This document shows, in pieces, positions 3,000 to 17,513 of a stretch of DNA of 28,131 bases. Position 1 is the first letter of the stretch. Every line of letters begins with the position of its first letter. The stretch covers positions 1 through 28,131 of the forward strand of contig JAQTRB010000001.1 in NCBI GenBank assembly GCA_028712015.1. Reading direction: 5' to 3'. The translations under genes and the position numbers were made by a program. This DNA comes from Syntrophales bacterium. GTDB lineage: Bacteria; Desulfobacterota; Syntrophia; Syntrophales; UBA5619. The notes below the pieces were generated by a model. The model did no database searches. It was not told where the DNA came from and saw only the letters and a program-made list of their open reading frames with translations.

Positions 3000-4262
3000 C
3001 TATCTCCTCTCCACAATGGCGCAGATCCCGAGTCCTCCGCCGCCACAGATGGTGACGAGCCCGTATCGGACGTCGCGCCGCATCATCTCATGGATCAGGG
3101 TGACGAGGCGTATGGACCCGGTGGCGCCGATGGGGTGGCCCAGGGAAATACCCGATCCGTTCACATTGACCTTTCGCTCCAGATCCGCGGTGCTGAGCGC
3201 CATCAATTTTGCATCGGCCAGCGTCTGGGCGGCAAAGGCCTCCTGGATCTCGATAAGATCGATCGAATCCATGGCCAATCCCGCCTTTTGAAGGGCCTTG
3301 TTCACGGCGGAGGAAACCGCCGGATAGGTCAAGGTCGGATCCGCCCCGGCCACGCCGAAGGATTTGAGATAAACCAGCGGTTTGACACCATGACGTTCAG
3401 CGATTTCCGGGGTTGTCATCACCAGTGCCGCCGCACCGTCGTTCTCACTGGAAGAATTCCCTGCCGTGCATATCCCGTCGGGATAAACGGCTTGAAGCTT
3501 GGCCAGTTTTTCCAGTGTCGTCTCCCGGCGAGGCGTTTCATCCCGGGCAAGGGTGAGCTCCTCCCCCTTTTTTTTAACCGTCACGGGAGTGATTTCATCT
3601 GCAAACTTGCCCGCGTCCATGGCCTGGATTGCCTTGCGGTGCGAGTCCAATGCCCATTGATCGGCCTCCTCGCGAGCTATCCCTTCTTTCCGCGCCGCCG
3701 CCTCCGCCCAGGTCATCATCGAATTGAGCTCGCCGAATCGGTCGATGGGCTGGTGCCGGGGACGACCGCGCTGGATCCTGTCGTAGAATGGAAGTCCCCA
3801 CAGGGAAAGGCTGCCGTGATGCCGGGGGGAAAAGCCCCACTTCGGATCGGCGCCCCCTCCCAATCCCCATTTGATGAGCTCACCGGGGATGTAGAACTCG
3901 CCGCGACTCATGCTTTCGGCGCCTCCGGCAACGACGATACCGGCATATCCGGTTTGGATTTCCATGGCCGCCGTCCATATCGACTGGAGCCCGGAACAGC
4001 AACGCCGATCGACCGTGAAGCCGGGAATCTCAACCGGCCAGCCTGCCTCCAGAAGCGCCAGCCGCGCCAGATTGGGAGTTTCGCCATTGGCAAAAGAGTG
4101 CCCGAGGATGACATCGTCAATCTCATCCGGTTCAATATGGGCCCTTCGCACCGCCTCTTGCAAGACGATGGCGGCCAGTTTTTCCACGGGGACATCCCGG
4201 AACATGCCGCAGTATGCCCCGATGGGTGTCCTGACCCCACTGACGATTGCGACCTCTTTCAC
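3000..4262 (-). CDS. Thiolase (acetyl-CoA C-acyltransferase family), atypical
   Basis: GTG start at 4262 after AAGGAGG; N-terminal EVAIVSGVRTPIG, nucleophile region DRRCCSG, GGAESMS, GNSSSENDGAAA, QEAF in place of NEAF, SLGHPIGATG, C-terminal TICGGGGLG. Confidence 0.92.
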   Translation of the reverse strand: MKEVAIVSGVRTPIGAYCGMFRDVPVEKLAAIVLQEAVRRAHIEPDEIDDVILGHSFANGETPNLARLALLEAGWPVEIPGFTVDRRCCSGLQSIWTAAMEIQTGYAGIVVAGGAESMSRGEFYIPGELIKWGLGGGADPKWGFSPRHHGSLSLWGLPFYDRIQRGRPRHQPIDRFGELNSMMTWAEAAARKEGIAREEADQWALDSHRKAIQAMDAGKFADEITPVTVKKKGEELTLARDETPRRETTLEKLAKLQAVYPDGICTAGNSSSENDGAAALVMTTPEIAERHGVKPLVYLKSFGVAGADPTLTYPAVSSAVNKALQKAGLAMDSIDLIEIQEAFAAQTLADAKLMALSTADLERKVNVNGSGISLGHPIGATGSIRLVTLIHEMMRRDVRYGLVTICGGGGLGICAIVERR

Positions 4263-4520
4263 TTTCCCCTCCTTGCTCGCCGTCAATTCCCGGATTGAAG
4301 CCATCACCGGCTCGTCTGCTCACGGATATTGCATTTGAATGGATCCTGCGGCCCGCGTGGCTTCCACACGTTCTTCGGGAAAGAGATCCTGCAGCAGGAT
4401 TACGTCGTCGGAAATACCCGGGCGGCCGATTTCCTTTTGCAGATCCTCGATGGTGGGCTGGGGTTGTTCCCAGTTCAGATATTTCTTGCCCTCAACCGTA
4501 TCGCTGGATGAAAGCTCACG
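4263..4520 (-). pseudogene. Start-less relic resembling the C-terminal part of a pyruvate/oxaloacetate carboxyltransferase (pyruvate carboxylase subunit B-like)
   Basis: Frame open from 4520: RELSSSDTVEGKKYLNWEQPQPTIEDLQKEIGRPGISDDVILLQDLFPEERVEATRAAGSIQMQYP, TGA at 4322-4320, then ADEPVMASIRELTASK in the thiolase frame. No start codon; TGA immediately upstream. Family assignment is from memory and unverified. Confidence 0.45.
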
Positions 4521-6024
4521 TCACTTGTTTGTCGTGCCTGATCTCGCGGAATTTTCTCAACAGGGGCAAAAAAAGGGCGATGATCGTCAGGGCCATGATG
4601 ATCCCGCTGATGGGCCGGCGGAAAAAGATGGTCCAGTCGTTCTGGAAACTGATCATCGTCGTCATGAAGGAACTCTCCGCCAGCGGTCCCAGGATCGTTC
4701 CCAGAACCATCGGTGCGATCGGAAATTTAATCTTTTCGAAGATATACCCCACGACGCCGAAGGCCACCATAAGCCAGAGATCGGAGATGCTGTTCCGGAT
4801 GGAGAAGGCGCCGATAAAGCAGAGGAGCATGATAAATGTTGAAACCACCGATTCGGGAAAATCGAGGATCTTCACGAGCGGTTTGATGGCGATGTATCCG
4901 ACGATGCTCATGAGGATGATCCCCAGGAACATCGAGGCGAAGACGGTGTAGACCATCCCGGTGGAGGTGATGAATATCTGCGGACCCGGTTGGATCCCGT
5001 GGAGGAGAAAGGCCCCGAGAATAACGGCCGTAGCGCCGCTCCCCGGAATGCCCAGGGTCAACAGGGGGATCAGGGCGCCGCCGACGGAGGCGGTGGCCGC
5101 CGCCTGGGGCGCGACGATCCCCTCGGGGATCCCACTGCCCATTTGTTCCTTTCGTTTTCCGTACTGAGCCTCCACGCCATAGGTGACAAAAGAGGCGATG
5201 GTGGCCCCGGCGCCGGGAACGATACCGATAATCGTACCGAGTATGGAGCTTCGGCAAAAGGTCGTTCCGATCCCCCAGGCCTCTTTGAGGGAGGGCATCC
5301 TGGTCTTCATGGCGCCCACGGTTTCCACGGGAACGGTTGTGAAGCCTTCGCCCAGTCGCGTCAAGACCTCGCCCACGCCGTAGGCGCCCACCATGACGGT
5401 GAGAAATTCAATACCGTCCATCAGGATGGGAGAACCGAAAGCGAAACGGGGCGTACCGTACGTCGCATCCACGCCCACGGTGGCAATGATAAGCCCGAAA
5501 AAGAGACTGATGAGGGCATTCGTCAGGGACCCGCCGCCGAGGGAAACGACGCTCGTCAGGCCGAAGAGGACGATGGCAAAATATTCGGGTGTGGAAAAGG
5601 TCAGGGCAAACTTGGCGACCGGTTCCGACAGGGTCACCATGATCACGCACGAAACGAGTCCGCCGATCAGTGCCGCGCAGATGGTCCAGCCCAGGGCCTT
5701 GGCTGCCTGACCCTGCTTCGCCATGGCATAGCCGTCCCAGAGGAGCGGGACATGGATGGGTTCGCCGGGAATCCGGAAGAGAATGGATGTGGGGGCGCCC
5801 CCGTAGGTGCCGGAAACATACATGGCCGTCAGCAGGACGATGGCGGGCGTCACGTCCATGGCATAGGTGAAGGGGAGGACCAGAATGACGCCCATGACGA
5901 GGGTCAGTCCCGGCAGGACGCCGACCAGAAGACCCACAACAATCCCCACGACAAGAAAAATCAGGTTGACCGGTTGGAAACAATTCAGGAAACCGACGCC
6001 GAGGTGGCTGAGAATATCCAACAT
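4516..6024 (-). CDS. tctA: Tripartite tricarboxylate transporter large permease TctA (copy 2)
   Basis: 502 aa hydrophobic; GVLPGLT, GTYGGAPTSILFRIPGE, GIVPGAGAT, LLTLGIPGSGATA, GIQPGP; RBS AAGGAG. Confidence 0.92.
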   Translation of the reverse strand: MLDILSHLGVGFLNCFQPVNLIFLVVGIVVGLLVGVLPGLTLVMGVILVLPFTYAMDVTPAIVLLTAMYVSGTYGGAPTSILFRIPGEPIHVPLLWDGYAMAKQGQAAKALGWTICAALIGGLVSCVIMVTLSEPVAKFALTFSTPEYFAIVLFGLTSVVSLGGGSLTNALISLFFGLIIATVGVDATYGTPRFAFGSPILMDGIEFLTVMVGAYGVGEVLTRLGEGFTTVPVETVGAMKTRMPSLKEAWGIGTTFCRSSILGTIIGIVPGAGATIASFVTYGVEAQYGKRKEQMGSGIPEGIVAPQAAATASVGGALIPLLTLGIPGSGATAVILGAFLLHGIQPGPQIFITSTGMVYTVFASMFLGIILMSIVGYIAIKPLVKILDFPESVVSTFIMLLCFIGAFSIRNSISDLWLMVAFGVVGYIFEKIKFPIAPMVLGTILGPLAESSFMTTMISFQNDWTIFFRRPISGIIMALTIIALFLPLLRKFREIRHDKQVT

Positions 6025-6038
6025 AGCAACTCCTTACG

Positions 6039-6569
6039 TTACCGGATGCCGAGCATTTTCAAGACCAGCAGGGAGAATTGCTGGAACATCCCCTGCCCGA
6101 GGGGGAGGGAAACATAGACCGCCTTCATAAAGATCACGACAAACAAAACCGTTCCGAGGACGCTGTTGGCCGCAATCACCCAGACCTTGCGGTAGCGGCC
6201 AACAATCATGAAGAGGAGAAGATAGAGAAACGTGCAGAGGATGAATCCCAGGATGCTCACGAAGTATACATAGGCAATGGTCATGAGGGTCCCGATGATG
6301 AGGAGACCGGTATATCGCTTTGGCGTTTCCGTCTTTTCCTTGCCGGCATCATTTTCCAATGCCTTGCCTCGATGAAACAGCATGATTTTGGCGATTTCAT
6401 ACAGACAGACCGCCATGGTCAGACCGAGGAGAAGCTTCGGCCAGAAGTCCGGGCCCAGATTCCCCGCTTTGGCGCCAAATCCGAACCGGCCGGCGAGAAC
6501 GTAGAAATATACGCTGATGAGAAGAACAACGGCGTAGGGAAAGATCCGTTTGATTTTTTCCATGGCCAT
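6039..6569 (-). CDS. tctB: Tripartite tricarboxylate transporter small membrane subunit TctB (copy 2)
   Basis: Start moved to ATG 6569 (GGAGGT upstream; 6563 also possible); 4 TM segments, LGPDFWP motif, C-terminal VSLPLG; between tctC and tctA. Confidence 0.85.
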   Translation of the reverse strand: MAMEKIKRIFPYAVVLLISVYFYVLAGRFGFGAKAGNLGPDFWPKLLLGLTMAVCLYEIAKIMLFHRGKALENDAGKEKTETPKRYTGLLIIGTLMTIAYVYFVSILGFILCTFLYLLLFMIVGRYRKVWVIAANSVLGTVLFVVIFMKAVYVSLPLGQGMFQQFSLLVLKMLGIR

Positions 6570-6649
6570 GATCCGCAATAACCTCCACAGGAATGTCTGC
6601 CTCCCGGTCCGAACCGGGAGACAGACCGAGCCGAAATGAAAAAAGGTCG

Positions 6650-7633
6650 TTACTTTTTCTTGGCGCCCCAGGTTTTTTTCATCGAATCCAGTTCGGAAAG
6701 GATGAACTTGGTGCACTCCTCATGGTTCATGAAGCTGTCCGCCGTCGCATACTGTTCCTCGAGGAAAGCCTTGAACTCCGGGGTCGCCGCCACCTTGCCG
6801 AAGGCATCCGAGAGGACCTTGATCTTCTTCGGGTCCGTCCCCGCCTTGGCAATAATGGCCCGGAACTGGGGCAGGCCGATATCATAGCCGAGTTCCTTGG
6901 AGCAGGGAACATCCTTGAAGGCCGGGAAGCGCTGGGAACCGAAGACGACGATGGGTTTGATCTGCTTGCCCGTAATGTACTGCCGTACGTCACCGGCCTG
7001 CTCGTAAAGGGCGTCCACATGGGTGCCGAGAACCGATACATACCGCTCACTGGGTTTGGAGTAGGGAACCTGGATGACCTTGACCCCTTTGCTTTCCAAG
7101 AAAGTCAGGGTGATGTCATCGACGCTGCCGAAGCCCAGGGTCGCCACCTTGAGAGTGCCCGGCTTTGCCTTGGCCTCCTTCTCGAAATCCGCCCAGGATT
7201 TGAAACGGCTGTTTTCCGCCACGAACAGGAAGGACGGGCCCAGCATCAGCCGTGCCACCGGCATGATGTCGGTCATCTTCCAACTGGCCGGTGAGGTCGC
7301 CAGCACGGCATGGGAATCGGCAATGTAGACGGCAATGGACTGGCCGTCCGCCGGCGCAGCCAGGAGTTTCGTAATGCCCGTGCCGCCGGTGGCGCCGGGA
7401 ACATCGATCACGGGAAATGGAACATTCAGCACCTTTTCCAGCAGGACGCCGCTTTTGCGGGCAAGCTGGTCCGCCCCGCCGCCGGGACCCCAAGGGACGA
7501 TGTACTCAATCGCCCGGGAAGGGTATTTCTCCTGAGCCGCCGCTTCCTTCAGGGCCGGACCTGCCAGCATCGCCGCTGAAAAGGTCAACGCCATGACCAT
7601 TACCAGGTATTTCCGCATGCGCTTTTTCATCAT
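6650..7633 (-). CDS. tctC: TctC/Bug-family periplasmic substrate-binding protein
   Basis: Signal peptide, YPSRAIEYIVPWGPGGGAD, PGATGGTG, APADG, DVPCSKELG, AKAGTD; start ATG 7633 after GGAGGAGG. Confidence 0.9.
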   Translation of the reverse strand: MMKKRMRKYLVMVMALTFSAAMLAGPALKEAAAQEKYPSRAIEYIVPWGPGGGADQLARKSGVLLEKVLNVPFPVIDVPGATGGTGITKLLAAPADGQSIAVYIADSHAVLATSPASWKMTDIMPVARLMLGPSFLFVAENSRFKSWADFEKEAKAKPGTLKVATLGFGSVDDITLTFLESKGVKVIQVPYSKPSERYVSVLGTHVDALYEQAGDVRQYITGKQIKPIVVFGSQRFPAFKDVPCSKELGYDIGLPQFRAIIAKAGTDPKKIKVLSDAFGKVAATPEFKAFLEEQYATADSFMNHEECTKFILSELDSMKKTWGAKKK

Positions 7634-7752
7634 TTCCTCCTCCATTTGATTTTCTACCCCTTCAACCAGGGCATCGATTTACGGAAACGAATCCGCCGTT
7701 TTTTCAAAGGGGCCCTTGACCGCCGGGATGTGACGACCGGCCTTCCAGCCGA

Positions 7753-9480
7753 TCAATCGGCAAAATATACGGGCGAAACGTTGGCTCTCAAAGCCGCCAG
7801 CTCCACTTCCGTCGGAGGCGGCGTCATCCCGACATCCGCCGGAACAATCAAATCGAATCCCGTCGCCGCCACAACCTGATCGACGGTCACTCCCGGATGA
7901 ACCGAGACCAGTTTCATCCGTTTGCTCAGAGGATCGAAGCCGAGGACCGCCATATCGGTAATGACCTTGTCCGGTCCGCCGCCGGTCAATCCGGCGTCGG
8001 CGCGCGATGTTCCGCCATTGAGATATCCAGGGCTGGTGATATAATCCACCCGCTCCAGAAAACGCCGCTTTTCATGTTTCATGATAATCATGGTCCGCTT
8101 TGCGCAGGAGGCGATGACATTGGCGCCGCCGCTGCCCGGAAAACGTTTTTTGGGTTTGTGGTAGTTTCCGATGCAGGTGGCATTCAGATTGCCGTATTGA
8201 TCGATCTGGGCCCCCCCCAGGAATCCGACATCGGCGAAACCCCGGTGGACGATGTGGCCCAGACCGTCCAGCGTCGCCGTAACAAAGGCGGGCTTCGCGA
8301 TACCGGTCAAACGCGGATCGGCAACCGACAGCGATGAATCGACCGGCTTCAAACCACCGATTCCCGTCTCAACAACATAGTGGCAATGGGGCGCATGGGA
8401 CAGCTTGGCCACGGTCGTTGCCGCCATGGGCAAACCCGTTCCCGCCACGACGATATCATGGTCTTTCAACTCGCGGGCGGCGGCGATGATCATGAGCTCC
8501 CGAAGGTTGAATTCTCCGGGCGGCTTCTCCTGCAGCTCGATCGCGGGACTGACGAGGCTGGTTGTGTATTTCGAATAACCAAGCCGGGGATCGATGGCCA
8601 GCCGGCGGTACGTCAGCGGCGTTCCGGCGATTTCGAGATAGGCGGTAAAATCCTCGACGCCGTAAACGAACCGGTCCAGATAGGCCTTGAAACTCTCCGG
8701 TGTGCTGGAAATCTTCTGGTAATTCCGGAGCGCCTCATAGTCATAGTCATAGCAACCGGGAACGCAGGACGGATAAGCGCCCCGCGGGCAGTGGACGATG
8801 GCGTTCACCCGGAAGAACGGAATGATGGTGGACTCGGGATTGCGCCGGATCTCATCGTTGGGAATCAATTGTTCCGTGACCAGGATCACCTGGCGGGCGG
8901 CCTTGGCGATATACTCGTCCGCAAAACTGGATCCGTCGATCTGGCAGTTGCCGCTTTCGTCGCAACGGGGCACGTGGATGACGGCGAGGTCGGGAGTGCA
9001 GGCGGGCAGGAGAACCACTTTCTGGTTTGTGAAGGGGCAATTCATCATTTCAAACTTTTTTGCCTTCAGGACCTGGTACTTGAGCATATCGGAACCCAGC
9101 ATGGATGTCATCGGGATGAAGGGAAAACCGAGGGAACCGGCCAGGTAGCGAAATGTCATCGCCCCGTGCTCATAGTCTTCGGAGAGGATTCGCCCCTCCT
9201 GAACGCTGCGGCAGAAGTTTTTCGGCAATCCGAGACGCTCCATGTTCACGCAGCCGGATTCGATGGACTTGACCAGCCCGGCGCCGATCAGGATATCCAC
9301 GGAATAGGAGGGATTCACGCTGGAAATATGCAGATCGCCGATTCCCTGACGGATCACTTCATGGGAAAAGGCCATCGGACTGCGACACAGGGAAAATCCA
9401 CCATAACCGAGATGCATCCCGGGATGGACAAAGCGAGAAACGGCTTCCTTCATGGTCATCAATTTGCACTCTTCACTCAA
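7753..9480 (-). CDS. Family I CoA-transferase, glutaconate/3-oxoadipate CoA-transferase type, alpha and beta subunits fused
   Basis: TTG start at 9480 after GAGGAGG; alpha part MTMKEAVSRFVHPG, PDLAVIHVPRCDESGNCQIDG, HCPRGAYPS; beta part ELMIIAAAREL, GTGLP, catalytic-type VETG, GGAQIDQYGNLN, GSGGAN, ERVDYITSPG, LVSVHPGV; no internal stop. Confidence 0.88.
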   Translation of the reverse strand: MSEECKLMTMKEAVSRFVHPGMHLGYGGFSLCRSPMAFSHEVIRQGIGDLHISSVNPSYSVDILIGAGLVKSIESGCVNMERLGLPKNFCRSVQEGRILSEDYEHGAMTFRYLAGSLGFPFIPMTSMLGSDMLKYQVLKAKKFEMMNCPFTNQKVVLLPACTPDLAVIHVPRCDESGNCQIDGSSFADEYIAKAARQVILVTEQLIPNDEIRRNPESTIIPFFRVNAIVHCPRGAYPSCVPGCYDYDYEALRNYQKISSTPESFKAYLDRFVYGVEDFTAYLEIAGTPLTYRRLAIDPRLGYSKYTTSLVSPAIELQEKPPGEFNLRELMIIAAARELKDHDIVVAGTGLPMAATTVAKLSHAPHCHYVVETGIGGLKPVDSSLSVADPRLTGIAKPAFVTATLDGLGHIVHRGFADVGFLGGAQIDQYGNLNATCIGNYHKPKKRFPGSGGANVIASCAKRTMIIMKHEKRRFLERVDYITSPGYLNGGTSRADAGLTGGGPDKVITDMAVLGFDPLSKRMKLVSVHPGVTVDQVVAATGFDLIVPADVGMTPPPTEVELAALRANVSPVYFAD

Positions 9481-9545
9481 AACGAAAACCTCCTCTTCAA
9501 TTTTCCGGGCAGTAGGATGTTGCCCCTTGGCGGGAGAGCGGGGGG

Positions 9546-9574
9546 AGCGTAGCGAAACCAATTTTCATTGTCAA
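9546..9574 (-). promoter_or_regulatory. Sigma70-type promoter for the CoA-transferase-tctCBA-thiolase unit
   Basis: TTGACA (9574-9569), 17-nt spacer, TACGCT (9551-9546), about 65 bp upstream of the TTG start. Confidence 0.65.
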
Positions 9575-9718: not shown

Positions 9719-11107
9719 TTAAACGCTCACTTTGTCGATGGCGCTCCGGATGGCTGAAACGATCCGGTCGATGTCACCCTTCGTGGCCACCAGCGCCGGG
9801 GCGAGATTAATGGTGTTGTTCAGACCGGGAAGGCTCCGATTGGTCCGGCCCACGAGGACGCCCTGATCGGCGATTCCCTTTACGATGTTCATCAGGAAGG
9901 GTTCCGACACCGGCTGTTTCGTTTTGCGGTCCTCGACAAACTCAATGCCGGCAAAGAGCCCCCTGCCCCGCACATCGCCTACGATCGGAAAGGCCCGGAG
10001 CTCCTCCAGACGGCCAAGCAGGTACTCCCCGACGATCCGGCTGTTTTCGCAGAGATGTTCCTCTTCGATGATCCGGGCGTTCTCCAGCGCCGCGGCGCAG
10101 GCGCCGGCGCAGCCGCCGTAGGTGCTGATGTCCCTGAAATAGGCCATCTTGTCGGCAGGATCATTGACAAACGCATTGAAAACGTCTTCCGTGACGACCG
10201 TGGCGGACAGCGGCATATAGGCGCTGGCCATTCCCTTCGCCAGGGTCACCATGTCGGGCTGAACGTCATAGTGCTGATAGCCGAACATCTTCCCCGTCCG
10301 GCCGAAACCGCAGACCACCTCGTCCAGGATCATCAGGACTTCATATTTCCGGCAGATTTTCTGCAGAAGCGGGTAATACTCCTTCACCGGCGGAATAATG
10401 CCTCCGCCGGCCGTAATCGTCTCAAGGATGACCCCCCCCACCGTGTCCGGGCCCTCCTTCAGGATCGCGGTCTCCAGGGCCATCGCGCAGTCGATGTCGC
10501 ATCCCGGATAGGTCCTTCCGAACGCGCACCGGTAGCAGCAGGCGTGCGGAAACTCCGCAAAACCCTCGAGGAACGGGCCGTAGCCTTCCTTCCGCTCCTG
10601 CTGTCCGCCGGCGCTCAGCGCCGCCATCGTGGTCCCGTGGTAATCCCGGTTGCGGTACAGGATCTTGTACTTGTCCTTCCCCTTGTATTTCAGACGGAAG
10701 TACTGCCGGACCATCTTGAAGGCCTTTTCGTTCGCCTCCGAACCGCTGTTGGAAAAGAAAATCTTGCCCAGGCCGGGCATCAGCGCTATGACCTTGCCGG
10801 CAAACCGGATCGTCGGGATGTTTCCCGCCGTGCCCGCATAGTAGGGCATCGTCTTCAACTGCTCGCGGACGGCGTCGGCGATGGAATCCCGTCCGTAGCC
10901 GACATTCACGCACCAGACCCCGCCCGATGTGGCGTCCAGATACTCCCGGCCCCGGATGTCCTTCAGGATCAGGCCCCGGCCTTCCACCATGACCTGAGGC
11001 TCGCTCGTCTGGAATACCTTGTGCTGCATCAGATGATGCCAGAGGTAATCCCGGTCCTGTTTCAACAATTCGTCGACGTCTTTCCGCATCAAATCCCTTT
11101 CGTTCAT
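9719..11107 (-). CDS. tpa: Class III PLP aminotransferase, taurine:pyruvate aminotransferase (Tpa)-like
   Basis: ATG 11107 after AAGGAGG; WHHLMQH, YLDATSGGVWCVNVGYGR, SNSGSEANEKA, YRNRDYHGTT, DEVVCGFGRTG, PLP lysine in TLAKG, and FVNDPADKMAYFRDISTYGGC closely recalling Bilophila Tpa (from memory). Family certain, substrate probable. Confidence 0.8.
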   Translation of the reverse strand: MNERDLMRKDVDELLKQDRDYLWHHLMQHKVFQTSEPQVMVEGRGLILKDIRGREYLDATSGGVWCVNVGYGRDSIADAVREQLKTMPYYAGTAGNIPTIRFAGKVIALMPGLGKIFFSNSGSEANEKAFKMVRQYFRLKYKGKDKYKILYRNRDYHGTTMAALSAGGQQERKEGYGPFLEGFAEFPHACCYRCAFGRTYPGCDIDCAMALETAILKEGPDTVGGVILETITAGGGIIPPVKEYYPLLQKICRKYEVLMILDEVVCGFGRTGKMFGYQHYDVQPDMVTLAKGMASAYMPLSATVVTEDVFNAFVNDPADKMAYFRDISTYGGCAGACAAALENARIIEEEHLCENSRIVGEYLLGRLEELRAFPIVGDVRGRGLFAGIEFVEDRKTKQPVSEPFLMNIVKGIADQGVLVGRTNRSLPGLNNTINLAPALVATKGDIDRIVSAIRSAIDKVSV

Positions 11108-11284
11108 GACTCCAAACCTCCTTGTTTCCAGCGACGGCGCCGGGCGCCGTTCTCCCAAATGACCTGCGGGGAAAGGCCTTTTTCCAGGCCGTTCAAATAT
11201 GCCCTGATGTCAAACCCCATCCCGGGACGCGTTGCTCGGCAAAGGTGGGGGAACCCCCTCGGGCGGGTGTTGATCCGCGGCCTG

Positions 11285-12064
11285 TTACAGCGTCAGCTCC
11301 GAGGCCTCGGTGATTTCGTGACGGAGCTTGAGAAACGCCATGTCCGTATGCTCCCGCGGCCGGGGCAGATCGACATTGTAGACAACGTCCATCCGGCCCG
11401 GCAGTTTGCCCACCATGGTGACGATGCGGTCCGCGAGATAGATCGCCTCATCGATATTGTTGGTCACAAAGAGGATCGTCCGCTTCTCGGTTTCCCAGAT
11501 GCGGGCGGTCTCCTTCTCCATGAAATAGCGGGTCTGGGCGTCGAGCTGGCCGAAGGGTTCATCCAGAAGCATGACCTGGGGATTGTTGGCATAAGCCCGG
11601 GCGATCCCCACCCGCTGCTTCATTCCGCCGCTGAGCTGGTGGGGATAGTGGTTCTCGAAGCCGTCCAATCCGACCAGATGGATGTAATGGGCGGCAATTT
11701 CGCGCCGCTCGTTCTTCGGTACGCCGCGCAGTTTGGGACCCATCTCCACGTTTCCCATGACCGTTTTCCAGGCGAAGAGCATGTAGCCCTGGAACACCAG
11801 ACCCCGGTCCGGTCCCGGACCTTCCACCTCCCGGCCGTCCAAGAGCACGCGCCCTTCCGTCGGCGTTTCCAGGCCGGCGATGATGCGCAGCAGCGTGCTC
11901 TTGCCCGACTGGCCCGGCCCCAGGATCACGACAAACTCGTTCTCCTTCACGTCCAGGCTGATGTGGTCCAGCACATGAACCCGCTGCTTCCCCTTCTGGA
12001 TGAAGATCTTGGTGATGTCTTCACACACGATCTTGGTCTGACCGGGATGCGTTTCGTCTTTCAA
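11285..12064 (-). CDS. TauB/SsuB-family ABC transporter ATP-binding protein (degenerate Walker A and H-switch)
   Basis: GPGQSGKST, VFQ Q-loop, LSGGMKQR, LLDEPFGQLD, FVTNNIDEA, DLPRPR. Start placed at TTG 12064 (AGGAG upstream); ATG 12124 is an alternative. Confidence 0.9.
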   Translation of the reverse strand: MKDETHPGQTKIVCEDITKIFIQKGKQRVHVLDHISLDVKENEFVVILGPGQSGKSTLLRIIAGLETPTEGRVLLDGREVEGPGPDRGLVFQGYMLFAWKTVMGNVEMGPKLRGVPKNERREIAAHYIHLVGLDGFENHYPHQLSGGMKQRVGIARAYANNPQVMLLDEPFGQLDAQTRYFMEKETARIWETEKRTILFVTNNIDEAIYLADRIVTMVGKLPGRMDVVYNVDLPRPREHTDMAFLKLRHEITEASELTL

Positions 12065-12127
12065 TCTGATCTCCTGCGACAAAGAATTGAATGTTCCGAG
12101 GCTCCGGTCCGGGCCGGCGCCCATCTC

Positions 12128-12961
12128 CTACGGGCTGTCGATCTCCCGCTTCCAGGGGCAGACGAACCGCTCCAGAACCGAGACGAGTTGGCTCATTCCC
12201 CAGGAAACGAGCGCAATGACAACCATGCCTCCCACGATCATGGCCGGTCGTGAGAGGTTCATACCCAGGATGATGATGAACCCCAGACCGGAGCGGGCGC
12301 TGACCAGTTCGGCGGCAAGAACGCAGCTCCAGGCGATGCTCAATGCGATCTGCAGCCCCGCGAAAATGGCGGGGAAAGCCGCGGGAAAGCATACCTGGAC
12401 GATCTCGTCGCGGCGGTTTCCGCCCAACATGCGGACCACGTCGTACAGCTCGGGCTCCACCAGCCGAACGCCGTTATAGGCGTCCAGCAGACAGGGCACG
12501 AATGTGCCGATGATGATGATGAATACCTTCGAGGTCTCGCCGATGCCGAACCAGAGGATCGCGATGGAGATCCAGGCCAGCGGCGGCATCGGTTTGAGAA
12601 GGTCGAAGAGCGGCTTCACAATGGCGTTGACATAACGGTTGAGCGCCATCATCAGTCCCAGCGGCACCGCCACCAGCGTGGCGATGGTGAAGCCGATGAG
12701 GATCCGCTGGGTACTGGCCCAGACATGACCCAGGAGCGACTTCCCCGCGAGCGGATCGAAGAGCATGCGCCAAAGCTGGAGGACCACTTCATGGGGCCGG
12801 GGCAGACCACTGGCGAACATGCGGGCCGAGCTGTCCCAGACGACGAAAAAGAACATCAGCGAAACGCCGTAGAGGAACCAGCGGTTCTTGAGCATCGCGG
12901 CCGGGGTCAGAGGTTTTCGTTCCCGAACCTGCTGCTGTATTTCGTTGGCAATATCGACCAC
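12128..12961 (-). CDS. TauC/SsuC-family ABC permease
   Basis: LKPMPPLAWISIAILWFGIGE, AAELVSARSGLG, about 6 TM segments; GTG start after GGAGG. Confidence 0.9.
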   Translation of the reverse strand: MVDIANEIQQQVRERKPLTPAAMLKNRWFLYGVSLMFFFVVWDSSARMFASGLPRPHEVVLQLWRMLFDPLAGKSLLGHVWASTQRILIGFTIATLVAVPLGLMMALNRYVNAIVKPLFDLLKPMPPLAWISIAILWFGIGETSKVFIIIIGTFVPCLLDAYNGVRLVEPELYDVVRMLGGNRRDEIVQVCFPAAFPAIFAGLQIALSIAWSCVLAAELVSARSGLGFIIILGMNLSRPAMIVGGMVVIALVSWGMSQLVSVLERFVCPWKREIDSP

Positions 12962-12967
12962 GTGACG

Positions 12968-13762
12968 CTACCTCCTAATCCCGGCCAGCAGCTTCTTCTC
13001 AAAATAGTTGATGATGATCCCGATCACGACGCCGGTGAGACCGATCATGATCATTCCCAGCAGGACCATGTCGGGCAGGGCGAGTTTCCTCCCCATCGTG
13101 ATGAGAAAACCGAGCCCCCGGTCCGCGGCCAGCAGTTCGGCCGCGACCAGGTTGGTCCAGCAAAGGGCAAGGGCAATCTGCAGTGCCCCGAAGACCATGG
13201 GCAGGGCCGAGGGAATGCAGATCTGCTTGAAGATCTGCCAGTCCGTGGCGCCGTATGTCCTGGCCATCTGGACCAGCGTGGGGTTCGTCATGCGGACCCC
13301 TTCATACGAATTGATCACGCAGGGTACGATGCCTCCAATCCAGATGATGAAGATCTTGCCGCTGATGCCGATGCCGAACCAGAAGATGACCAGGGGGATC
13401 CAGGCAACGGGAGGAATGGGGCGGATCATTTCGAAAATCGGACGGCCCAGGCCTTCGACGACGACAAACCAGCCCATGGCCAAACCCAGCGGTATCCCCA
13501 CAAGCAGGGCAAGCAGATAGCCGGCGAAAGCCTCCTGGACGCTGGTCCAAATATGCTGCGAAAGCAGGGCGCCGTCAGGATTCACCTCCGTCCACTTCAC
13601 CAAAAAAAGCTGAAAAATCTGGATCGGCGAGGCGAGCATCGTCGACGGGACGATCTCCCGATCCACAACCATCTGCCACGCGCCGAAGAAGGCAAGGACG
13701 CTCAGGACGGGAAGCAGCCTCAGGATCAGGGGCGTCTTGACTTTGACTTGCTCATAGGCCAT
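12968..13762 (-). CDS. TauC/SsuC-family ABC permease (second paralog)
   Basis: IRPIPPVAWIPLVIFWFGIG, EAA-like QMARTYGA, AAELLAADRGLG; GGAGGTG RBS. Confidence 0.9.
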   Translation of the reverse strand: MAYEQVKVKTPLILRLLPVLSVLAFFGAWQMVVDREIVPSTMLASPIQIFQLFLVKWTEVNPDGALLSQHIWTSVQEAFAGYLLALLVGIPLGLAMGWFVVVEGLGRPIFEMIRPIPPVAWIPLVIFWFGIGISGKIFIIWIGGIVPCVINSYEGVRMTNPTLVQMARTYGATDWQIFKQICIPSALPMVFGALQIALALCWTNLVAAELLAADRGLGFLITMGRKLALPDMVLLGMIMIGLTGVVIGIIINYFEKKLLAGIRR

Positions 13763-13916
13763 GGATCACCTCCGAATGTTCTCCCGGCGCGGGAGAAAAA
13801 CAGTTTAAAATCGATCTGACGTGGAAAAGGGATCTTCATGCTTTGCATCGTTTTCCACGAGACGGATACAGGAAAATCATCATGTCTCAGACGGCCGCAC
13901 ACCTTATGAGCGCAGG

Positions 13917-13965
13917 GCCCATTTCGGGAACCGGCCTTTTCCCCGGGCCGGTCCCCGAAATGGGC
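13917..13965. other. Strong inverted repeat (20-bp stem with 1 mismatch, 9-nt loop) just downstream of the binding-protein gene
   Basis: GCCCATTTCGGGAACCGGCC (13917-13936) pairs with GGCCGGTCCCCGAAATGGGC (13946-13965); no poly-U tail on the minus strand, so more like an mRNA-stabilising hairpin than a classic terminator. Confidence 0.75.
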
Positions 13966-14011
13966 AGCATCCTCGTCCCGTCGCAACGGATCAGAACCCG
14001 CCATCCGCGCC

Positions 14012-15088
14012 CTAGGGAATGGGCTGTTTGACCATTTTGAGGAATTTGTCCGTGATGTAGGGGGTCTTGAGCGCCTTGTCCCTTTCCTCCGGCTTGAACC
14101 GCCCCAGTGTCGTGAACACCTCGGTGATGGTTCGCTGCCAAGACTCGACCGTGCTGTCCCCCTTTGCCGGTTTCTTGAACAGCTTCAACTGTTCCTCATA
14201 CGTGAAAACCGGATGCCACTCGAAATCGTTCTTCAGCATGTCGTCTTTCAGGTCCATACCGGCCCATTCCTTGTAGAAGCGCTTGTATTCGGGCAACAGC
14301 TTGATACCTTCCTTTTTGATCAGGTTGATTCCCCGCATGTACATCCTCAAAAACTTGGCGACAATTTCCGGGTTTTTGTCGCAGAATTTCTTGTCGCCCA
14401 TCAGGATGATGGGCAGGGCAGCGCCGGCGGTTTTCACGTCGCCGGCCACCTTCCATCCCTTCCCCATGCCCGTGAACATATGGGGCGCCCAGAGGACGAC
14501 GATGTCGCCGACGCCCGAATCAAAGGCCGCCACGGCCTGGGCCTGGTCCATGTTCTTGACCACCACGTCGCCGTCCTTGAGCCCGAATGCCTTGAGCCAG
14601 AGGCTCATGGCGTAATGGCCCGATGAAACCGTCGTGACCAGGATCGTCTTGCCTTTGATCAAATCGGGATTGCCGTAGAGTTCGGGGTGTTTCTTGTTCC
14701 AGCCCTTAACCTTCAGGATCGGGCTGTCGGGCCGAACCATGACGACATTCGTGATGGACTCGTCATTGCCGAGGGCGATCAGATAGGCTCCGTGACGGAG
14801 GGCGCCCACCACCATCGGCACGCCGCCCTGCCCGCCCAGGACCCACTGTCCGGCAGGCAGCGCTTCCCATTGCGCCATGCCGGAGTCGAAGTAGTGCATC
14901 TTGATGTCCAGCCCCTCTTCCTTGTCCCAACCCTTCTGCTTGGCATACCAGACCACGAAGGTCTCATGCTCCGGCTGCCAGCTGGTGTTGAGTTCGAAGA
15001 GTTTCTGCTGCGCGAAAGCCGCGCTGGCCCCGCCGACGAAAAACGCCAACGCCAACAATACAATGCCTGCAACTTTGAGCTTCCTCAT
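14012..15088 (-). CDS. TauA/SsuA (NitT/TauT family) ABC substrate-binding protein
   Basis: ATG 15088 after AAAGGAG; signal peptide ending SAAFA; KGWDKEEGLD, FDSG, LIKGKTILVTTVSSGHY, AFDSGVGDIVVLWAP. Confidence 0.87.
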   Translation of the reverse strand: MRKLKVAGIVLLALAFFVGGASAAFAQQKLFELNTSWQPEHETFVVWYAKQKGWDKEEGLDIKMHYFDSGMAQWEALPAGQWVLGGQGGVPMVVGALRHGAYLIALGNDESITNVVMVRPDSPILKVKGWNKKHPELYGNPDLIKGKTILVTTVSSGHYAMSLWLKAFGLKDGDVVVKNMDQAQAVAAFDSGVGDIVVLWAPHMFTGMGKGWKVAGDVKTAGAALPIILMGDKKFCDKNPEIVAKFLRMYMRGINLIKKEGIKLLPEYKRFYKEWAGMDLKDDMLKNDFEWHPVFTYEEQLKLFKKPAKGDSTVESWQRTITEVFTTLGRFKPEERDKALKTPYITDKFLKMVKQPIP

Positions 15089-15208
15089 ACCGTCCACTCC
15101 TTTCTGTTTTTGATGGTCTCCTCCCGGACAGGCCCCTGCCTGTACCCCCGAAACGCGTTGTCCCGATGCAGACAGAGCCGGGACGTCTCTGTTCATTGAG
15201 ACCCGCCG

Positions 15209-15976
15209 CTACCACCAGCGGATCAGTTCCGTCACCTCCTTGCGGATCTCCACAAGGCGGGGATCGATAAGACTCCGGGGACGGGGCAGATCGACCTTGA
15301 CTTCGGCCTTGACCTTGGCGGGCTTGTTGCTCAGAATGAGGATGCGCTCCGACACGTAGACCGCCTCTTCGATATTGTGGGTCACAAAGATCACCGTGCT
15401 CTTGAGCTGCTCCCACAGGCGCACCAGTTCATCCTCCAGATAGTAGCGAAGCTTCACGTCCAACTGGCCATAGGGCTCATCCATCAAGAGCAGATCCGGA
15501 TTGACGGCAAAGGCCCGGGCCACGGCGATCCTCTGCAGCATGCTGGCCGAGATCTGGTTGGGATAAAGATCGGCGCAGTCGGCCAAGCCCACCAGGCTCA
15601 TGATCTGATTCAGCTTCTTCTCCATTTCCGCCTTCGGAACCCGCTTGACCTCCATCCCGTAGGCCACGTTCTCGCGCACGGTGCGCCAGGGCAGGCAGGT
15701 CGGTTCCTGGAAAACGAAGGAGAGATGATGTTTCTTGGGATCGGCAACTTCGCCATCGATGAAGATGTCTCCCGCCGTGGATGGAATCAGTTTGGAGAGT
15801 GTATTGAGAAATGTGGTCTTGCCGCAGCCCGTGGGCCCGACAATGCTTAGAAATTCGCCTTCTCCCACATCGAAGGATATCTGATCAAGGACCAGCAGAT
15901 CCCCGAATCGCTTCGTCAGATTTCTGACCTCGATTTTTGCCTTTCTTGTTTTACCACCGTCCACACTTCCCCCCAC
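15209..15976 (-). CDS. TauB/SsuB-family ABC transporter ATP-binding protein (degenerate signature motif)
   Basis: GPTGCGKTT, VFQ, signature ISASMLQR instead of LSGGQ/M, LLMDEPYGQLD, FVTHNIEEA, DLPRPR. Start GTG 15976 or 15964. Confidence 0.9.
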   Translation of the reverse strand: MGGSVDGGKTRKAKIEVRNLTKRFGDLLVLDQISFDVGEGEFLSIVGPTGCGKTTFLNTLSKLIPSTAGDIFIDGEVADPKKHHLSFVFQEPTCLPWRTVRENVAYGMEVKRVPKAEMEKKLNQIMSLVGLADCADLYPNQISASMLQRIAVARAFAVNPDLLLMDEPYGQLDVKLRYYLEDELVRLWEQLKSTVIFVTHNIEEAVYVSERILILSNKPAKVKAEVKVDLPRPRSLIDPRLVEIRKEVTELIRWW

Positions 15977-16031: not shown

Positions 16032-17438
16032 CTAGCGACCATATTTCGCCCAGAGCGGGCCCCAGATTTCATCTTCGGTCGGCTTCACCACCGGCAGCGG
16101 TTCGGAGACCCATGTCACATTGATAAAATGCTTCCAGTGGATATTTTCGCTCGTGATGTTGCCGCCCCAGGTGCCGCATCCCAGCGTGACCGTGGAGGGC
16201 ATGCCGTTGTGGAAATGGCCCCCGGCGGACGGCGCATGGGCCTGACGGACCAGAATGCGGCTGACTTTGGCGGCAGTCGCCACCTTCCGGATATAGTCGG
16301 AATTGAAGGAATAGATGCCGCAGGAGTGTCCCAGCCCCGCATAGTTGTGGAGTGTCGCGATGAGCTCTATGGCATCGTCGATCGTCTGGTAACGCCACAG
16401 GGCCATGACGGGGGATAGTTTCTCGCCGCTGAATCGCTCCTCGCCGGGTTTTTCCCCGATGACCATGAGCATTTTGGTGCCCTCGGGAACGGCGAGCCCG
16501 GCGTCTTCGGCGATGCGACGGGCCGATACGGCGATAATCTTGGAATTGAGGGCAACATGACCTGTTTTTGAGCTCGCGACCCACATCCAGCTCTCCAGTT
16601 TTTGCTTTTCTTCCTCATTGCAGAGGTATCCGCCCTGTTTTTTGAGCTCCGCCACCATCCGGTCGAAAACGCCCTCCTGGATCAGCAACGAATTATCGGA
16701 ACTGCACGAGGTTGCATTGTCGAACGTTTTACTGATCCGGATCTTCTGGGCCGCATCCGCCAAGTCGGCATCTTCGGCGATAATGATGACCGGGTTGCCG
16801 GCGCCGACGCCATAGGCGGGCTTTCCGCTGGAATAGGCGGCCTTGACCATCACGGCGCCGCCGGTCGCCACCACCAGGTCCACCTGCCGCATCAACTCCT
16901 GGCTCATCGGTACGCTGGGCTCCTCGATATATTGAATCAAATCCACCGGGGCGCCGACCTTGCGCAGTCCCTCCCGCATGAATTCGCAAACCACCCGGCA
17001 GGACCGCTTCGCCGCCGGATGGGGGGCAAAAATGACGGCGTTACGTCCTTTCAGGATCCCCGTGCCGTTGCTGGCCGCCGTTGCGGTGGGATTCGTCACG
17101 GGCGTCAGCGCCCCGATGATCCCTACCGGCTTCGCGTATTTCGTCAGCCCACGGGCTTCGTCCCGTTCGATCACCCCCACCGTTTTCGCCTGCTTGATAT
17201 CGCGGCAGACCCCAAGGACCTTGACCTTGTGTTTGGTGAGTTTGTCCTCATAGACGCCCATGCCGGTCTCTTCCACGGCGATTTTCGCGCAGGCGGCAAT
17301 GTTGTCGTCCTTGTATACCTGCCATGCCACCGAGAGGGCCACCTCGTCGATCTGCTCCTGCGTATAATTTTCCACCAGTTTCTGTGCGGCACGTGCCTTG
17401 GCCACCAAAGTGCCGACGATCTCTTCGTTGCTCGACAT
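16032..17438 (-). CDS. sauS: CoA-acylating aldehyde dehydrogenase, sulfoacetaldehyde dehydrogenase (SauS)-like
   Basis: ATG 17438 after AAAGGAGG; KPVGIIGALTPVTNP, ATGG, GVGAGN, SKTFDNATSCSS (catalytic Cys; matches SauS as remembered rather than AdhE-type DNGxICASEQ), EKLSP, GCGTWGGN; no C-terminal alcohol dehydrogenase domain. Confidence 0.75.
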   Translation of the reverse strand: MSSNEEIVGTLVAKARAAQKLVENYTQEQIDEVALSVAWQVYKDDNIAACAKIAVEETGMGVYEDKLTKHKVKVLGVCRDIKQAKTVGVIERDEARGLTKYAKPVGIIGALTPVTNPTATAASNGTGILKGRNAVIFAPHPAAKRSCRVVCEFMREGLRKVGAPVDLIQYIEEPSVPMSQELMRQVDLVVATGGAVMVKAAYSSGKPAYGVGAGNPVIIIAEDADLADAAQKIRISKTFDNATSCSSDNSLLIQEGVFDRMVAELKKQGGYLCNEEEKQKLESWMWVASSKTGHVALNSKIIAVSARRIAEDAGLAVPEGTKMLMVIGEKPGEERFSGEKLSPVMALWRYQTIDDAIELIATLHNYAGLGHSCGIYSFNSDYIRKVATAAKVSRILVRQAHAPSAGGHFHNGMPSTVTLGCGTWGGNITSENIHWKHFINVTWVSEPLPVVKPTEDEIWGPLWAKYGR

Positions 17439-17484
17439 GTCTCCTCCTTTTTTTGAAACGCCCGTCCGGCGACCAGCGGCTAAA

Positions 17485-17513
17485 TCCGTATACAAAAATA
17501 TCATGGTTGTCAA
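17485..17513 (-). promoter_or_regulatory. Candidate promoter of the sauS-ABC-tpa unit overlapped by a GTATAC operator
   Basis: TTGACA at 17513-17508; imperfect -10 (TACGGA) at 17-nt spacing; CCGTATACAAAA at 17486-17497 overlaps the -10 region. Confidence 0.5.

Follow-up and report, generated by a model that had tools for sequence, protein, structure and literature searches.

The genes at positions 11285–15976 of the window analysed here (the whole stretch of 28,131 nt, corresponding to positions 1 to 28,131 of contig JAQTRB010000001.1 in the Syntrophales bacterium assembly GCA_028712015.1) encode two different ATPases (A and B), two permeases (P1 and P2) and a substrate-binding protein. We propose that these five genes would form one type I ATP-binding cassette (ABC) importer of the NitT/TauT group, with the composition (A·B)(P1·P2) plus the periplasmic binding protein. 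All of the motif deviations of A and B map to a single composite ATP site, and it is likely that the importer has one catalytic site (site I) and a second, ATP-binding site (site II) that hydrolyses poorly or not at all. Heterodimer assembly, ATP binding at site II and single-site hydrolysis are properties that we infer from the sequences.

Both ATPases match the PF00005 nucleotide-binding domain (NBD) family in score and in having six motifs in order, and they are 40% identical to each other. The importer and its neighbouring genes form one co-oriented run on the minus strand of the window, and all features below lie on that strand. Motif positions were taken from the minus-strand translation, and residue equivalences from HMMER alignments to solved NBDs. 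ATPase A (15209..15976; 255 aa; PF00005 at 6e-29, 101.8 bits against a cutoff of 25) has a consensus Walker A (GPTGCGKT, 15815..15838), a Q-loop (FQEP), a Walker B with catalytic Glu167 (LLLMDEP, 15473..15493), a D-loop (GQLD, 15458-15469) and an H-switch in which His200 is present (VTHN, 15374..15385). Its signature, however, is degenerate (ISASM, 15539..15553), with Ser143-Ala144-Ser145 aligned with the SGG of the LSGGQ/M signature of solved NBDs. The best solved matches of A are sugar NBDs together with CmpC, CmpD and NrtD. Its real start may lie 12 nt downstream of the called one, because its homologs are 251 aa long.

ATPase B (11285..12064; 259 aa; PF00005 at 4e-30, 105.5 bits against a cutoff of 25) has the reverse combination. 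Its signature is consensus (LSGGM, 11621..11635), and it has a Q-loop (FQGY), a Walker B that keeps Asp168 and Glu169 (VMLLDEP, 11555..11575) and a D-loop (GQLD, 11540-11551). In its Walker A (GPGQSGKS, 11897..11920) Gln52 replaces a conserved Gly, although Lys55 and Ser56 are kept; this motif is aligned with GHSGCGKS of CmpD, and Gln52 matches the fourth-position Gly of GxxGxGK[ST]. In its H-switch (VTNN, 11456..11467) the His is replaced by Asn202 (codon AAC, 11459-11461), as TNN is aligned with THD of CmpD. The best solved matches of B are CmpD (9u9z_D, 5e-54) and NrtD (8wm7_D). It starts at a TTG at 12064 with GGAG upstream, and its homologs are 252–259 aa long. A first-pass annotation of this DNA had described a normal Walker A, Walker B and H-switch with an ISASM signature in one ATPase, and a normal LSGGM with an altered Walker A and a His-to-Asn change in the other; translation reproduces each of these motifs at the coordinates it gave.

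In an NBD dimer, one subunit contributes its Walker A, Walker B, Q-loop and H-switch to a given ATP site, and its partner contributes the signature (PMC3971661). Site I would thus combine the Walker A, Glu167, Q-loop and His200 of A with the LSGGM of B; it would be fully consensus and would hydrolyse ATP. Site II would combine the Walker A (Gln52) and H-switch (Asn202) of B with the S-A-S signature of A and would be degenerate. In the mechanism that we propose, site II would bind Mg-ATP and hydrolyse it very slowly or never. Its role would be that of an allosteric site or of nucleotide 'glue', comparable to the degenerate site in TM287/288, TmrAB or CFTR, and one ATP per cycle would be split at site I, as in heterodimeric exporters. 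A homodimer of A would lack the signature glycines in both sites, and a homodimer of B would lack the H-switch His and the Walker A Gly in both. The (A·B)(P1·P2) assembly is proposed because only the A·B combination has a fully consensus site, the consensus halves of which are invariant in the 154 related loci described below; this complementary conservation and the obligate co-occurrence of A and B lend the physical heterodimer indirect support. The window assembly (2.05 Mb, 79% complete) holds no further NBD of the importer family able to partner A or B.

The remaining subunits are encoded between the two ATPase genes. The binding protein (14012..15196) is of the NMT1/SsuA type, with matches to PF09084 and PF13379 and a match to TIGR01728 (SsuA_fam, 2.6e-23) that is under the cutoff of that family; its true start is likely to be Met37 at 15088 (MRKLKVAG..., with a signal peptide read from the translation). 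By profile matches, permease 1 (12968..13762) is a BPD_transp_1 protein resembling TauC, SsuC and NrtB, and permease 2 (12128..12961), also BPD_transp_1, is its paralog, at 40% identity.

The pattern of deviations is highly conserved. We assembled locus sets from relatives of A, of a 57%-identical Clostridia representative and of a 42%-identical deep representative, which gave a pooled, non-redundant set of 154 loci, each with readable sequences of both ATPase types, and an aligned subset of 74 full-length systems. The query for the Clostridia set (P0244) is a 397-aa gene call in which the ATPase is fused to an unrelated downstream piece, and loci L104-L137, which matched just this piece or distant NBDs, are without an A-type/B-type pair and fall outside the pooled count. 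The A-type signature is S-x-S in 154/154 loci (SAS 83, SVS 38, SSS 17, STS 10, SIS 5, SMS 1), and GG is found at this position in 0/154. Position 4 of the B-type Walker A is Q in 127, H in 13, R in 8, K in 4, Y in 1 and L in 1, with Gly in 0/154; the B-type H-switch residue is Asn in 143 and Ser in 11, with His in 0/154. The same variants are kept in all of the best 120 homologs of A and the best 120 of B.

The complementary motifs are conserved just as strictly. The Walker A of A is identical and its H-switch His present in all 154 loci, and the SGG of the B signature was parsed in 153, the remaining locus having a one-residue parsing offset and reading LSGGM by eye. Throughout the aligned subset (74/74) A has the Walker B Asp-Glu, and B has the LSGGM signature and retains the P-loop Lys, the P-loop Ser/Thr, the Walker B Asp-Glu and the Q-loop Gln. 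Because B keeps these residues, and because the replacement residues are conserved too, it is likely that site II binds ATP, with poor or no hydrolysis. The D-loop Gln of GQLD is found in 74/74 A and 59/74 B sequences, the other B sequences having Ala or His, while relatives have G-A-L-D; as D-loops face each other across the dimer, this Gln may be part of an asymmetric coupling.

Gene content follows the ATPase pair. At least two permease genes are present in 151/154 loci, and the three loci with fewer may have been cut by contig ends. In every related locus with enough flanking sequence, A and B are accompanied by two permeases and a binding protein, in three gene orders (A-SBP-P1-P2-B, A-P1-P2-B-SBP and SBP-P1-P2-B-A, where SBP is the substrate-binding protein gene), and wherever flanks were available A and B were not found apart from each other. 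The earlier expectations that ISASM- and TNN-type variants would co-occur as pairs alongside two permeases, and that they would not be unique to this genome, are thus borne out, with pairing in all 154 loci. An origin of the variants by decay or sequencing error is ruled out by their conservation in these loci, which come from several phyla. The chance of three changes hitting the same site is about 1 in 4; however, the complementary layout is kept in every one of the paired loci, and the pattern is for that reason more than chance. It is this retention that supports the original proposal of one consensus and one degenerate site.

To place these changes against a background, we took the 50%-identity clusters with the greatest similarity to A and compared 113 single-domain representatives. 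Among these, only the A clade has lost the second signature Gly. The H-switch residue is other than His in just two B-type sequences and P0309, and these two B-type sequences, together with one oddity, are also the ones with a residue other than Gly at position 4 of Walker A. An H-switch Asn outside the core B clade was seen in P0309, which has DEA in Walker B and a consensus signature, and in P0256, which has the Walker A GPTSCGKT and is placed beside the B clade. In a maximum-likelihood tree the A-type sequences form one clade (SH-aLRT 96–97) and the B-type sequences another (98), and the two are not sisters. Such a tree, with one clade of each type, indicates that the pair arose once and has been kept since, and we regard the A/B pair as a conserved subfamily of single origin that is not peculiar to the window genome. 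The distance matrices of A, B, P1 and P2 correlate with r = 0.91–0.96, and 0/999 Mantel permutations reach the A–B value, which shows that the four proteins are inherited as a unit.

Several of these observations nevertheless weigh against an importer with one catalytic and one poorly hydrolysing site. The catalytic Glu is retained in B, and site II may therefore hydrolyse some ATP. Eight otherwise canonical relatives among the 113 representatives are without the first signature Gly (LSxGM; the single NitT/TauT ATPases P0273, P0301, P0305, P0336, P0344, P0347, P0359 and P0373), and this residue seems tolerant to change in NitT/TauT ATPases, such that its loss alone is weak evidence. Finally, the distance correlation is also expected from simple co-inheritance in an operon, and by itself does not demonstrate physical contact.

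The first two of these points bear on a different model, in which A and B form a heterodimer but both sites hydrolyse ATP, and the Gln, Asn and S-x-S variants tune catalysis. The retention of Glu169 in B is what keeps this model alive, and the strict presence of Lys, Asp-Glu and the Q-loop Gln in B, the occurrence of LSxGM in canonical relatives and the conservation of the substitutes themselves (Gln, His or Arg; Asn or Ser), pointing to a function and not a loss, all agree with it. We nonetheless consider it unlikely, as the three deviations share one site while the other site is invariantly consensus in 154/154 loci, and as, in the NBDs that have been studied, few residues are as hard to replace as the second signature Gly and the H-switch His. 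Substitutions of these residues abolish hydrolysis in HlyB, MalK, HisP, P-gp and CFTR.

A slightly less probable alternative is that the A·B heterodimer binds no nucleotide at site II and that B is a purely structural partner. The replacement of the Walker A Gly by bulky Gln, His, Arg or Lys throughout the loci could be read in this way, but B invariantly has its P-loop Lys and Ser/Thr, its Walker B Asp and its Q-loop Gln, which would be hard to explain if Mg-ATP were not bound. In other P-loop NTPases the form GxxxxGK[ST] suffices for nucleotide binding, and the Walker A of B still fits it, which also argues against an empty site. We can all but dismiss two separate homodimeric transporters (A2·P1_2 and B2·P2_2) with one common binding protein: the gene content would permit them and TauABC- and SsuABC-type systems are homodimeric, but each would have two impaired sites, A and B are inherited together and are not separated in any locus with available flanks, and A·B is the only combination for which the consensus halves are invariant. 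An A·B heterodimer with a catalytic site I and a site II that is degenerate but binds ATP is therefore the arrangement that we favour.

Among the sources of the loci are Thermodesulfobacteriota, Clostridia, Spirochaetes and Acidobacteriota, the A-type ATPases being 40–92% identical to that of the window. The closest hosts are Syntrophales (91–93% identity). Others include Desulfobacterales and Desulfovibrionaceae (among them Bilophila wadsworthia and D. desulfuricans); Desulforamulus, Moorella, Peptococcus, Enterocloster citroniae, Anaerotruncus and many gut Lachnospiraceae and Oscillospiraceae; Treponemataceae and Sphaerochaetaceae; and metagenome-assembled genomes (MAGs) of Acidobacteriota, Chloroflexota and Actinomycetota. 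One database entry assigns a 78%-identical A-type ATPase (P0082), as a hypothetical protein, to the mayfly Ephemera danica; this is most likely bacterial contamination of that assembly. The system is present in 13/300 sampled genomes of the phylum of the window and in 0/9 from the same order, yet Syntrophales copies with 91–93% identity exist, and this patchy spread suggests horizontal transfer of the whole operon.

A similar layout is seen in a separate group of proteins, called 'nitrate ABC transporter ATP-binding proteins', which have two ATPase domains fused in tandem and are about 586 aa long (P0245, P0246, P0249 and 119 homologs). They are encoded by Roseibium/Labrenzia, Hoeflea, Cohaesibacter, Ahrensia and an Acidimicrobiales MAG. 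In 120/120 of those checked, the N-domain has an H-switch Asn with a consensus LSGGM, whereas in the C-domain Asn takes the place of the first signature Gly and the His is consensus (LSNGM in 114; LSNGQ, ISNGM, MSNGM and such in 6). In the tree the two domains group as sister clades (98), which indicates that a duplication independent of the A/B pair led to the same complementary arrangement. We lean, by a modest degree, towards the view that there is a widespread, previously undescribed subfamily of type I importers with one catalytic and one non-catalytic site that would use one ATP per cycle, and that the fused ATPases of marine Alphaproteobacteria represent a second, independent origin of the design.

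If this is correct, catalytic asymmetry would be a recurrent adaptive design of importers and not a speciality of exporters. The ATP requirement of the type I cycle and the role of the second site are usually probed with mutants engineered in symmetric systems, MalK or HisP for example. The subfamily would be a natural importer in which evolution has fixed one consensus and one altered site, permitting tests of stoichiometry and of the function of a non-hydrolytic site, and would be useful for asking how asymmetric NBDs couple to asymmetric permeases. It is tempting to speculate that the design saves ATP in energy-limited anaerobes, although the same complementary layout is present in the fused ATPases of Roseibium and Hoeflea, which we take to be aerobic. 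The subfamily is common in anaerobes of the human gut, including Bilophila wadsworthia, Enterocloster, Anaerotruncus and Faecalibacterium-related MAGs. As members of its close clade adjoin genes of amine and sulfonate catabolism, the system may be the missing taurine-type uptake step that feeds H2S-producing pathways.

The genes around the importer bear on its substrate. Directly upstream is an acylating aldehyde dehydrogenase resembling SauS (16032..17513; NF047625, 541 bits against a cutoff of 600), and directly downstream is a class III omega-aminotransferase (9719..11158; PF00202; NF005812, 496 bits against a cutoff of 488), followed by a fused CoA-transferase identified by profile matches (7753..9561), TctC/TctB/TctA (4516-7645) and, beyond these, a thiolase (3000-4307). 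The window locus thus places the importer with a SauS-like dehydrogenase and a CoA-transferase, with a tripartite tricarboxylate transporter (TTT) downstream. In B. wadsworthia the TTT system beside SauS is the sulfoacetate importer SauXYZ (PMC10413351), and the thiolase and TctA/TctB/TctC at 3000–7645 in the window fit, by analogy, a C2-sulfonate theme for the cluster. Class III aminotransferases very often adjoin the loci of the close clade.

B. wadsworthia, a taurine specialist, has the ABC system with two binding-protein genes, and a 57%-identical aminotransferase is encoded elsewhere in its genome. In strain ATCC 49260 (L029, 409-12982) the order is A-P1-P2-B followed by the two paralogous binding-protein genes, and a hybrid sensor kinase carrying an SBP_bac_3 domain lies upstream, as does a sigma-54 activator. 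From the neighbouring genes, we would give roughly even chances to the substrate being taurine, or else a small omega-amino sulfonate or carboxylate akin to it. It counts against this assignment that it is drawn from gene neighbourhood only and that every TauA/TauB/TauC equivalog cutoff is missed, the SsuA/TauA-like binding protein scoring far under its cutoffs. In the literature, of which subscription journals were mostly beyond reach, we found no identified taurine ABC transporter of Bilophila, and nothing on the present system in work on taurine transport in Bilophila or Desulfovibrio. In the deeper Clostridia clades the binding proteins are 19–35% identical to that of the window, and these clades very likely carry other substrates; with such divergence, the asymmetric engine would be older than any single specificity.

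Comparison with known families places the window system as a divergent member of the NitT/TauT type I importers (TC 3.A.1.16/17), on the grounds of its permeases, its NMT1/SsuA-type binding protein and its NBDs, which are near NrtD, TauB and SsuB and have the C-terminal DLPRPR tail of the group. No subfamily cutoff is reached: B scores 218 bits with TIGR01184 (ntrCD) against a cutoff of 292. The TauABC equivalogs (NF008421, NF007545 and TIGR01729) are likewise missed, with TauB at 217.4/178.7 against 357, TauC at 142.8/148.7 against 342 and TauA at 49.7 against 304, and so are SaoA/SaoP (NF040729 and NF040733), with A at 223 and B at 237.5 against 360 and the permeases at 136.5/145.9 against 295. 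The importer is not a TauABC ortholog, although it may still transport taurine. It has the same permease, NBD and binding-protein families as TauABC and SsuABC, and its best NCBIfam matches include TauB, TauC, SsuA, SsuB and SsuC; those systems, however, have one ATPase and one permease gene, are homodimeric and have consensus motifs.

The closest parallel for two different ATPases is NrtABCD/CmpABCD of cyanobacteria (NitT family; 8wm7, 8w9m and 9u9z), also a type I system with an NMT1-like binding protein (PMC10945777, PMC13287603). The NBDs of NrtBCD and CmpBCD form a pseudosymmetric dimer with a consensus sequence in every motif and symmetric binding of two ATP-Mg (PMC10945777, PMC13287603). 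These transporters differ from the window system in having one permease gene, the product of which is a homodimer, and a C-terminal regulatory domain on NrtC and CmpC, whereas the window system has two permease genes, one degenerate site and no extra domain on A (255 aa) or B (259 aa), and so does not share the NrtBCD/CmpBCD architecture. The first-pass statement that TauT/NitT importers normally have one ATPase gene accordingly applies to TauABC and SsuABC but not to NrtC/NrtD and CmpC/CmpD, where two ATPases with consensus sites are known.

Degenerate sites are frequent among ABC exporters (PMC3971661, PMC7756269). In TM287/288, TmrAB, BmrCD, PatAB, TAP1/2, CFTR and MRP1 the deviations, in the Walker A and H-switch of one NBD and in the signature of its partner, converge on one composite site, so that one consensus site is left (PMC7756269, PMC3971661), and the window system, with its non-identical NBDs and its deviations all in one composite site, has the same one-consensus-plus-one-degenerate-site pattern. 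The asymmetric exporters have the type IV fold with fused transmembrane domain (TMD) and NBD and usually lose the Walker B Glu, while the window system is a type I importer of separate subunits in which B retains it. The likeness to TM287/288, TAP and CFTR drawn initially holds for the sharing of one site, but site II is milder, as B keeps Lys, Asp-Glu and the Q-loop Gln. Among importers, a single degenerate ATP site has been recognised by sequence in the RbsA/NupO ATPases, which serve sugar and nucleoside import and where the second NBD is without the Walker A Lys (PMC11466899); these belong to another family with another TMD fold and have fused NBDs, as opposed to the separate NBDs, retained Lys and two permeases here. 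In the literature, our coverage of which was incomplete, we found neither the subfamily of the window described nor any type I importer that combines separate NBDs with a degenerate site. This agrees with the initial remark that no characterised importer of this family was known to have such a design, with the qualification that degenerate sites are known in RbsA/NupO. What is probably new, then, is a conserved one-consensus/one-degenerate design in an importer of this kind, a design that is already well known in exporters.

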